IMG/VR virus record: IMGVR_UViG_2718218399_000013
Origin: a virus
Lineage: Duplodnaviria; Heunggongvirae; Uroviricota; Caudoviricetes
Direction: 5' to 3' (one strand)
DNA length: 24,737 nt
A program made the position numbers and the translations under genes. The notes beneath the pieces were generated by a model that saw only the letters and a program-made list of their open reading frames with translations, searched no databases and was not told the origin of the DNA. Numbering within the stretch: the stretch's first letter is position 1; each line of letters begins with the position of its first letter. Below are positions 21,540 through 21,929 of the stretch, in pieces.

Positions 21540-21929
21540 ATGAAGAAAGCAGCAATTTTAATTGATGCGGGTTTTTTCATGCAGCGTGTTCATGCTACGC
21601 ATCGTAAACACTTCGCCGAGCATGAACTGACTGCGCAATGCATAATGAAAGTAATATGGTCAATGGTTCTTTCCCATCTTAATGGAAAACGTCAATCACA
21701 AGAACGTAGGGAACCGCTTGAGCTTTATAGAATTTACTTCTATGACTGTCCACCACTCGACATTCAAACACGCCTTCCACTTCCTGAGCCTGGCAATAAG
21801 ACGCCTGGTCGCAAGAATTTCAAACTCGAAAAATCATATATTCTGAGAACGGAGCTGCATGAAGAGTTAAGAAAAACTCGAAAAACACCAATTGTATTTA
21901 TTTTAAAATTAATAGGTGCAACTCACTAA
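21540..21929 (+). CDS. hypothetical protein, 129 aa, at the position occupied by rexA/rexB in lambda
   Basis: ORF with ATG start between the cI stop and OL/PL, same strand as cI; no resemblance to RexA or RexB as recalled; basic C-terminus. Confidence 0.5.
   Translation: MKKAAILIDAGFFMQRVHATHRKHFAEHELTAQCIMKVIWSMVLSHLNGKRQSQERREPLELYRIYFYDCPPLDIQTRLPLPEPGNKTPGRKNFKLEKSYILRTELHEELRKTRKTPIVFILKLIGATH

Follow-up and report, generated by a model that had tools for sequence, protein, structure and literature searches.

A truncated NYN nuclease gene and its predicted leader RNA in the rex slot of an O157-type prophage

The window analysed here is a 24,737-nucleotide (nt) stretch of tailed-phage DNA (IMG/VR record IMGVR_UViG_2718218399_000013), and between its immunity repressor gene cI and the promoter PL lies an open reading frame (ORF) of 129 amino acids (aa). 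We conclude, with a probability of about 0.8, that this locus is a wrecked four-part cassette that took the place of lambda rexA-rexB, in which the ORF would be the dead remnant of a gene for an NYN-domain nuclease and the promoter and leader RNA in front of it would be intact. The first-pass annotation had treated the ORF as a complete gene replacing Rex. It corresponds instead to the first 116 codons of a 285-aa NYN gene, cut short by a deletion of 577 base pairs (bp).

Results

The ORF and the parts from which it is composed are as follows.

21540..21929, + strand: 129-aa ORF with an ATG start (ORF list)
21540..21887, + strand: codons 1-116 of the NYN-domain nuclease gene, a 5' remnant identical to nt 1-348 of ev099 gp48
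21886..21888, no strand: deletion junction AAAAAC/A/CCAATTG, 577 bp missing relative to phage ev099, with 1 nt of microhomology
21888..21929, + strand: 13 codons and a stop codon, from DNA between t_imm and OL that is non-coding in ev099 and lambda

In the PHROGs database the ORF matches only positions 1-108 of the 246-position profile of phrog_5783, a family of unknown function, and this half-length match made us suspect a truncation. By megablast, the query aligns to phage ev099 in two pieces, with a total span of 1277 bp in ev099 and 700 bp in the window, and the pairwise alignment of the two contains one clean gap of 577 bp in the window. The ev099 gene, gp48 (YP_009909946), encodes a protein of 285 aa that is annotated as NYN domain-containing, and it is the sole gene between cI and N in that phage. 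Along with the distal part of the gene, the deletion removed a t_imm-like terminator.

The parent protein has an NYN (PIN-like) fold and is a predicted metal-dependent nuclease. It passes the Pfam NYN model (36.8 bits, cut-off 24.2) over aa 158-205, which is a segment deleted in the window, and the 129-aa ORF itself has no match in Pfam (0 families at E<=1), NCBIfam or PADLOC. The family to which the parent belongs contains 7035 proteins at E<=1e-3, typically 260-290 aa in length. An alignment of 36 diverse members contains 38 invariant residues, 12 of which are kept in the ORF and 26 of which lie beyond residue 116. Among the invariant acidic positions (D9, D69, D164, D170, D189, D191 and D224), the ORF retains D9 and D69 only, having lost D164, D170, the GDSDF motif that supplies D189 and D191, and D224. 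It also retains just two of the five core beta-strands of the parent. The ORF thus has neither the Pfam model, nor the acidic active-site set, nor the five-stranded PIN-like fold of an NYN protein, and these comparisons indicate that it is the broken front part of the nuclease gene and a non-functional remnant.

The closest known proteins are the NYN/LabA-like PIN-fold nucleases (PF01936), such as the NYN domain of MARF1 (5yaa) and VPA0982 (2qip). Compared to a minimal NYN domain the parent is about twice the size, with an inserted segment that contains YDCPP, a beta-hairpin at aa 116-131 and a tail that is basic and disordered. No relative came out of a profile search of PDB sequences, and a search of BFVD returned distant LabA/NYN proteins of giant viruses only. 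The defence models of PADLOC-DB 2.0 gave no match to the window ORF; the ev099 parent gave weak, partial matches to HEC-09 (E 2e-4) and NYN (E 1.4e-3) that are confined to the catalytic motif.

The location of the ORF was described correctly in the first-pass annotation. Its coordinates, strand and position between cI and PL are borne out by the ORF list and a promoter scan, and direct alignment of the window to lambda places it in exactly the rexA-rexB slot on the cI strand. The flanking landmarks are listed below.

20699..21412, + strand: cI repressor gene, 237 aa, lambda immunity type (ORF list)
22045..22073, + strand: PL promoter, TTGACA-17-GATACT (promoter scan, 10/12)

The window repressor is identical to lambda cI at 232/236 residues (98%), and it is labelled a LexA family protein in a genome record that is 100% identical to the window. 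The OL operators lie just 5' of PL, the boxB of nutL is at 22129-22143, and the OL/PL region is approximately 95% identical to its lambda counterpart. Homology to lambda DNA ends just past the cI stop codon and, when read together with the ev099 alignment, restarts at the t_imm terminator/OL region 3' of rexB; the window-lambda alignment shows no DNA homology between the cI stop and t_imm. Together with the empty Pfam, NCBIfam and PADLOC scans, this agrees with the earlier view that the ORF is unrelated to Rex, and neither the ORF nor the cassette has sequence or domain similarity to RexA or RexB. The lambda operon occupies the same position and strand, from the cI stop to t_imm/OL, but consists of two genes co-transcribed from PRM, whereas the nuclease cassette has one gene with its own predicted promoter and leader RNA, and in the window that gene is inactivated. 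Neither promoter nor leader follows cI in lambda in the alignment past the cI stop, and we therefore define the unit that replaces rexAB as a promoter, a leader RNA with a U-run, the nuclease gene and a terminator.

Upstream of the ORF, the window retains the first two parts of this unit.

21431..21459, + strand: predicted sigma-70-type promoter (promoter scan, 9/12)
21431..21446, no strand: inverted repeat TTGACGGCACAGTCAA, overlapping the -35 box (read from the sequence)
21465..21531, + strand: leader RNA of type A (fold, covariation, covariance model R1)
21470-21476/21516-21522: stem P1 of the leader
21479-21483/21509-21513: stem P2
21485-21489/21502-21506: stem P3
21490-21501: type A loop, CAAUUGUUAAUA

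The imperfect hairpin followed by a T-run that had been noted between cI and the ORF is real. The hairpin at 21470-21522 folds with -25.9 kcal/mol (z = -3.6), and none of 200 shuffled sequences was as stable. Stem P1 (AGCCCAG/CUGGGCU) is followed by an A at 21523 and seven U residues at 21524-21530, such that a stem containing G and C runs directly into a U-run as in an intrinsic terminator, judged from sequence only, and the hairpin with its A/T-run ends 9 nt 5' of the ORF start codon. A simple terminator scan missed it because the loop exceeds the limit of 3-8 nt used in that scan. With filters off, model R1 finds one strong match in the window, at 21465-21531 on the + strand (80.5 bits, E 1.4e-18); the next matches are the reverse strand of the leader site at 18.5 bits and another weak one at 17.2 bits. 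Rfam 15 has no match to it at the gathering threshold, and at E<=10 over 21380-21600 gives chance-level matches only (<=12.8 bits). The hairpin was also considered as one arm of a ToxI-like repeat array, which was rejected because there is no tandem repeat at 21300-22000.

The predicted promoter has a -35 box TTGACG at 21431-21436, a 17-nt spacer and a -10 box TAGATT at 21454-21459, which places the predicted start approximately 3-4 nt 5' of the hairpin. A TTGACN with a -10-like hexamer at a spacing of 16-19 nt and at a fixed distance from the hairpin is present in 38/41 unique flanks of type A leaders. The inverted repeat may be an operator for a DNA-binding protein; the pattern TTGAC-N(4-10)-GTCAA recurs in 10 of the 41 flanks, Pseudomonas loci included. 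Strand-specific RNA-seq of strain EDL933 shows that the ORF is transcribed in all 11 conditions, with a ratio of 0.03-0.23 (PMC4048457, Table S4). RNA abundance is lower downstream of the hairpin, which is consistent with termination there.

The hairpin is more than a terminator that separates cI from the ORF. It belongs to the nuclease cassette, with a predicted promoter of its own on the 5' side and conservation alongside the gene outside lambdoid phages. Two distant homologues, one standing alone beside glmS in Proteus and the other at the edge of a Pseudomonas syringae prophage, have folded 5' flanks that share its architecture and a similar loop, with compensatory changes. We collected 240 loci of relatives from genomes, viral contigs and metagenomes, and the 150 nt before the start codon gave 176 unique regions. 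These contain four leader types (A-D) that track the protein subfamilies. Type A occurs in Enterobacterales, Pseudomonas, Pasteurellaceae, Acinetobacter and others, and consists of stems P1 (7 bp), P2 (5 bp) and P3 (5 bp), capped by a 12-nt loop of consensus xAAUxxUUAxxx, and a U-run after them. Type B is found in beta-, gamma- and alpha-proteobacteria, Acidobacteria and Elusimicrobia, and has the pattern GCCCUUGG-CAGUA(A/C)G-variable hairpin-GCCGA(N)CC-CAAGGGC, then a U-run. Type C, in Bacteroidales, is longer with similar outer stems. Type D, in Rhodanobacteraceae (L037-L062 and relatives), lies approximately 60-80 nt 5' of the gene start and has a TAGAAT or TAAAAT -10 box ahead of a GC-rich, covarying hairpin that lacks a U-run.

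Covariation of type A was assessed on alignment A5, which holds 18 sequences including the window. Paired bases fill 92.8% of cells, compared to 28-45% in registers slid by 1-3 columns on the 3' side, and 13/17 pairs have compensatory changes on both sides. The observed covariation values were reached by none of 500 shuffles, and RNAalifold independently predicts 15 of the pairs. Searched against 100 loci (334 kb, both strands), model R1 gave 45 matches at E<0.01, all on the gene strand and all ending within approximately 45 nt of the NYN start; these include Pasteurellaceae, Marinobacterium and a metagenome contig (L189) that are absent from the seed. Type B was assessed on alignment A6 (31 sequences), in which 94.1% of cells are paired and 8/10 pairs show double changes. 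Its model, R2, gave 50 matches in 321 kb, each directly 5' of an NYN gene, and matched neither the window nor the loci of types A, C and D. Types A and B may or may not form one family, as R1 and R2 do not detect each other's members and a short CAGUAC similarity in Pseudomonas is the sole link. In 655 kb of loci, neither element was seen after a repressor gene that lacks an NYN gene.

Rfam 15 has no match 5' of the NYN gene in 12 diverse loci. Neither the gene nor the RNA is described in the literature that we searched on NYN proteins with prophage defence, abortive infection, type III toxin-antitoxin (TA) systems or RNA motifs (including Weinberg 2017), and papers on Hfq-CRAC and small RNAs in enterohemorrhagic Escherichia coli mention no small RNA in prophage Sp1. 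On the evidence of folds, covariation and model searches, the hairpin appears to be an intact, previously uncatalogued structured RNA that is exclusively linked to the NYN family across many phyla.

The intact gene is found in several settings. It occupies the rex slot of ev099 and its relatives, and an identical 285-aa protein is encoded by 48 phages that convert their hosts to Shiga toxin (Stx) 2a production. In an E. albertii phage (L019:5001-6239) the NYN cassette lies 3' of Q and before the lysis/methylase genes, which is the position of the stx genes in Stx phages. In P. syringae (L009:6001-7974) the cassette abuts the integrase at the end of a prophage, and in Proteus (L005:6001-6795) a solitary cassette adjoins glmS. 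For a defence role of the intact gene, this genomic context is the sole hint. BstA of P22-like phages is likewise a single accessory gene beside the immunity repressor (PMC8585504). The BstA protein is unrelated to the NYN gene. BstA self-immunity depends on a DNA element inside the gene, not on a leader RNA.

Among 5426 complete E. coli genomes, 274 contain at least the 5' part of the nuclease gene. The full 858-bp gene is present in 74, and approximately 200, essentially all O157:H7, hold nt 1-348 to 1-355 only; the exact junction seen in the window, free of an insertion sequence (IS), is found in 107. The spread of the truncated ORF reflects clonal inheritance in O157:H7, with at least 99.7% identity. 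Four alleles can be compared. Strain NZRM4165 has the whole gene with a 1-nt frameshift and, immediately 3' of it, an IS629/IS1203 insertion that duplicated the target TAA. In EC4115 the gene is cut after ...CAGCC and continues with ATAA, the IS in the same orientation as in NZRM4165 and then TAACCAATTG. Balcarce_24.2 has ...CAGCCT, an inverted IS and then CCAATTG, and the window allele has no IS and lacks a few more flanking bases. The allelic differences are seen at 21886-21888 of the window, at L003:3840-3870 and 5150-5175, at L004:3840-3860 and 5150-5170, and at L014:4915-4930 and 6225-6240. The EC4115 allele yields a 127-aa product with a different tail, and because the alleles encode different tails, we regard the C-terminal tail of the 129-aa product as accidental. 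Some records flag the ORF as incomplete or as a pseudogene, whereas PGAP lists an ordinary coding sequence.

The four alleles look like a stepwise series of IS-associated deletion and IS loss. An IS629 would have inserted 3' of the intact gene, after which an adjacent deletion would have taken the 3' part, and in the lineage of the window the IS would later have been lost along with a few flanking bases. In an O157-type thrW prophage, an IS629-associated deletion of 577 bp would thus have removed the distal 60% of the nuclease gene and its terminator.

Decay extends to other parts of the prophage, and many pseudogenes surround the ORF.

22302..22414, + strand: remnant of the antiterminator gene N (about 20 N-like codons) fused to a 5'-truncated integrase gene (ORF translation)
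23297-23369, - strand: tRNA-Thr (thrW), between the truncated integrase and proA, the prophage attachment site

The N-like codons match the N-terminus of lambda N. The window integrase is annotated as incomplete and missing its N-terminus, and ECs0272 is named a putative transcription antitermination protein. Elsewhere in the window, at approximately 13790-15818, a gene for a LEM-3-like GIY-YIG domain protein is directly followed by a second IS629/IS1203 copy 5' of pinE and invertible tail-fibre remnants. Assuming collinearity with CP022689, a P4-like satellite prophage spans approximately 175-11260 (primase-helicase, Icd-like, Psu, Ogr/Delta and integrase genes); Rfam places a C4 antisense RNA at 4902-4989 and isrK at 5058-5135 within it, both on the - strand. 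On the same assumption, its variable region at approximately 6800-10075, with genes for an AAA ATPase and for "ABC-three component system" proteins, is likely a defence hotspot.

Discussion

The leader is most likely an attenuator or regulatory RNA for a toxic nuclease, as far as can be judged from its structure and placement. In the intact cassette, transcription would start a few nt before the hairpin, and most transcripts, whether from the cassette promoter or from PRM, would stop at the hairpin and U-run to give an RNA of approximately 65 nt. Nuclease mRNA would then come from read-through only, which would keep a potentially toxic enzyme low in lysogens. The conserved nucleotides of the loop and internal loops could be a binding site, most plausibly for the nuclease itself, and would allow autoregulation or inhibition. 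The leader is possibly an RNA antitoxin.

This last option leads to the alternative that survives best, although we consider it doubtful: that the leader RNA inhibits the NYN nuclease in trans, as an antitoxin or otherwise, within a type III-like TA or abortive-infection module. An abundant short RNA would be matched by scarce read-through nuclease mRNA, and the nuclease would become active once phage infection had shut down transcription in the host; the window would retain the antitoxin beside a dead toxin. Decay that removes a toxin and spares its antitoxin is common. The order of promoter, structured non-coding RNA, strong U-run or intrinsic terminator and enzyme gene is that of ToxIN and AvcID, which are likewise found on mobile elements and prophages. 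A non-coding RNA does lie directly 5' of the enzyme gene in the window (hairpin and U7 at 21470-21530, ATG at 21540), and the arrangement is conserved in 45 type A and 50 type B loci. The class of RNA changes with the protein subfamily, as expected of interacting partners, and the gene sits in lysogen-expressed or moron slots (the rex slot, 3' of Q, prophage edges and next to glmS). However, the antitoxins of type III systems are tandem repeats that the toxin processes, and here each locus has one model match and a single hairpin. Furthermore, the enzymes of those systems are ToxN or a deaminase, and the NYN fold differs from that of ToxN-type toxins. The homologues with type D leaders have no terminator, and the PADLOC matches of the parent are weak and partial. 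The single-copy RNA, the NYN fold and the terminator-less type D together argue against simple membership in the type III TA systems.

It is very improbable that the hairpin and T-run are simply the intrinsic terminator of the cI transcript from PRM or PRE, unlinked to the downstream gene. Lambda has no such element after cI, and since lambda homology runs no further than the cI stop, the hairpin is part of the inserted cassette. In addition, NYN genes with no cI beside them are preceded by the same structure, in which the pairs show compensatory changes and the loop is conserved, and a conserved predicted promoter separates cI from the hairpin. The hairpin may additionally stop PRM transcripts, which is compatible with its role as a leader.

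Least probable of all, and already largely refuted, is the view that the ORF, as it stands, works as an exclusion or defence protein expressed in lysogens. In its favour are the place of the ORF in the rex slot and on the cI strand, its transcription in every EDL933 condition tested, its annotation by PGAP as an ordinary coding sequence and its presence in approximately 200 complete genomes, but it is a truncated copy of a 285-aa gene from which 26/38 invariant residues and 3/5 core strands are gone, its tail is accidental and differs among alleles, some records call it incomplete or a pseudogene, and its prevalence is clonal in a prophage whose neighbouring genes have decayed. The exclusion function proposed for the ORF is accordingly very unlikely, with most invariant and catalytic residues lost and IS629 at the break in other O157 truncation alleles. 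The wider suggestion that the slot holds a lysogen-expressed accessory or defence gene does not stand for the ORF itself, and may still hold for the intact parent gene in other phages.

Several points weigh against our preferred reading of a dead remnant behind an intact regulatory leader. The remnant is transcribed and its start codon is intact, such that a polypeptide may be made, and this may have a residual non-catalytic role, such as RNA binding. The EDL933 data would not capture an RNA of 65 nt, nor can they tell initiation at the cassette promoter apart from PRM read-through. Because the aligned RNA sequences share ancestry, the shuffle statistics overstate significance; the slid-register control is more reliable. 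Given that type D hairpins have no U-run, termination cannot be the universal role of the leader, and the 5' hairpin is conserved even where the terminator is not. Finally, microhomology at the deletion junction amounts to 1 nt only, and the inferred order of deletion, IS629 insertion and excision rests on four alleles without a phylogeny.

More speculatively, the hairpin RNA and the NYN nuclease might form a new RNA-controlled nuclease module that spans phyla and serves temperate phages in abortive infection or exclusion; the O157 copy would be decayed yet still make the RNA. Such a module could take the form of a single-hairpin RNA antitoxin or of an autoregulatory leader recognised by the nuclease, and would be carried at sites that are expressed in lysogens, among them the Rex slot of Stx2a-converting phages.

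For O157:H7, these results mean that an ORF annotated as a hypothetical protein in approximately 200 complete genomes is a gene fragment that does not merit pursuit as a Rex-like factor, and that its alleles offer a compact example of IS629-driven decay in O157 prophages. An intact cassette is now defined at the Rex position of 48 sequenced Stx2a-converting phages and of other lambdoid phages. It comes with two uncatalogued classes of structured RNA that are strictly tied to a 7000-member nuclease family, and family and RNA together range over Proteobacteria, Acidobacteria, Elusimicrobia and Bacteroidales. The arrangement provides a directly testable hypothesis of how phages may safely keep an RNase that is potentially toxic and perhaps turn it against their competitors.
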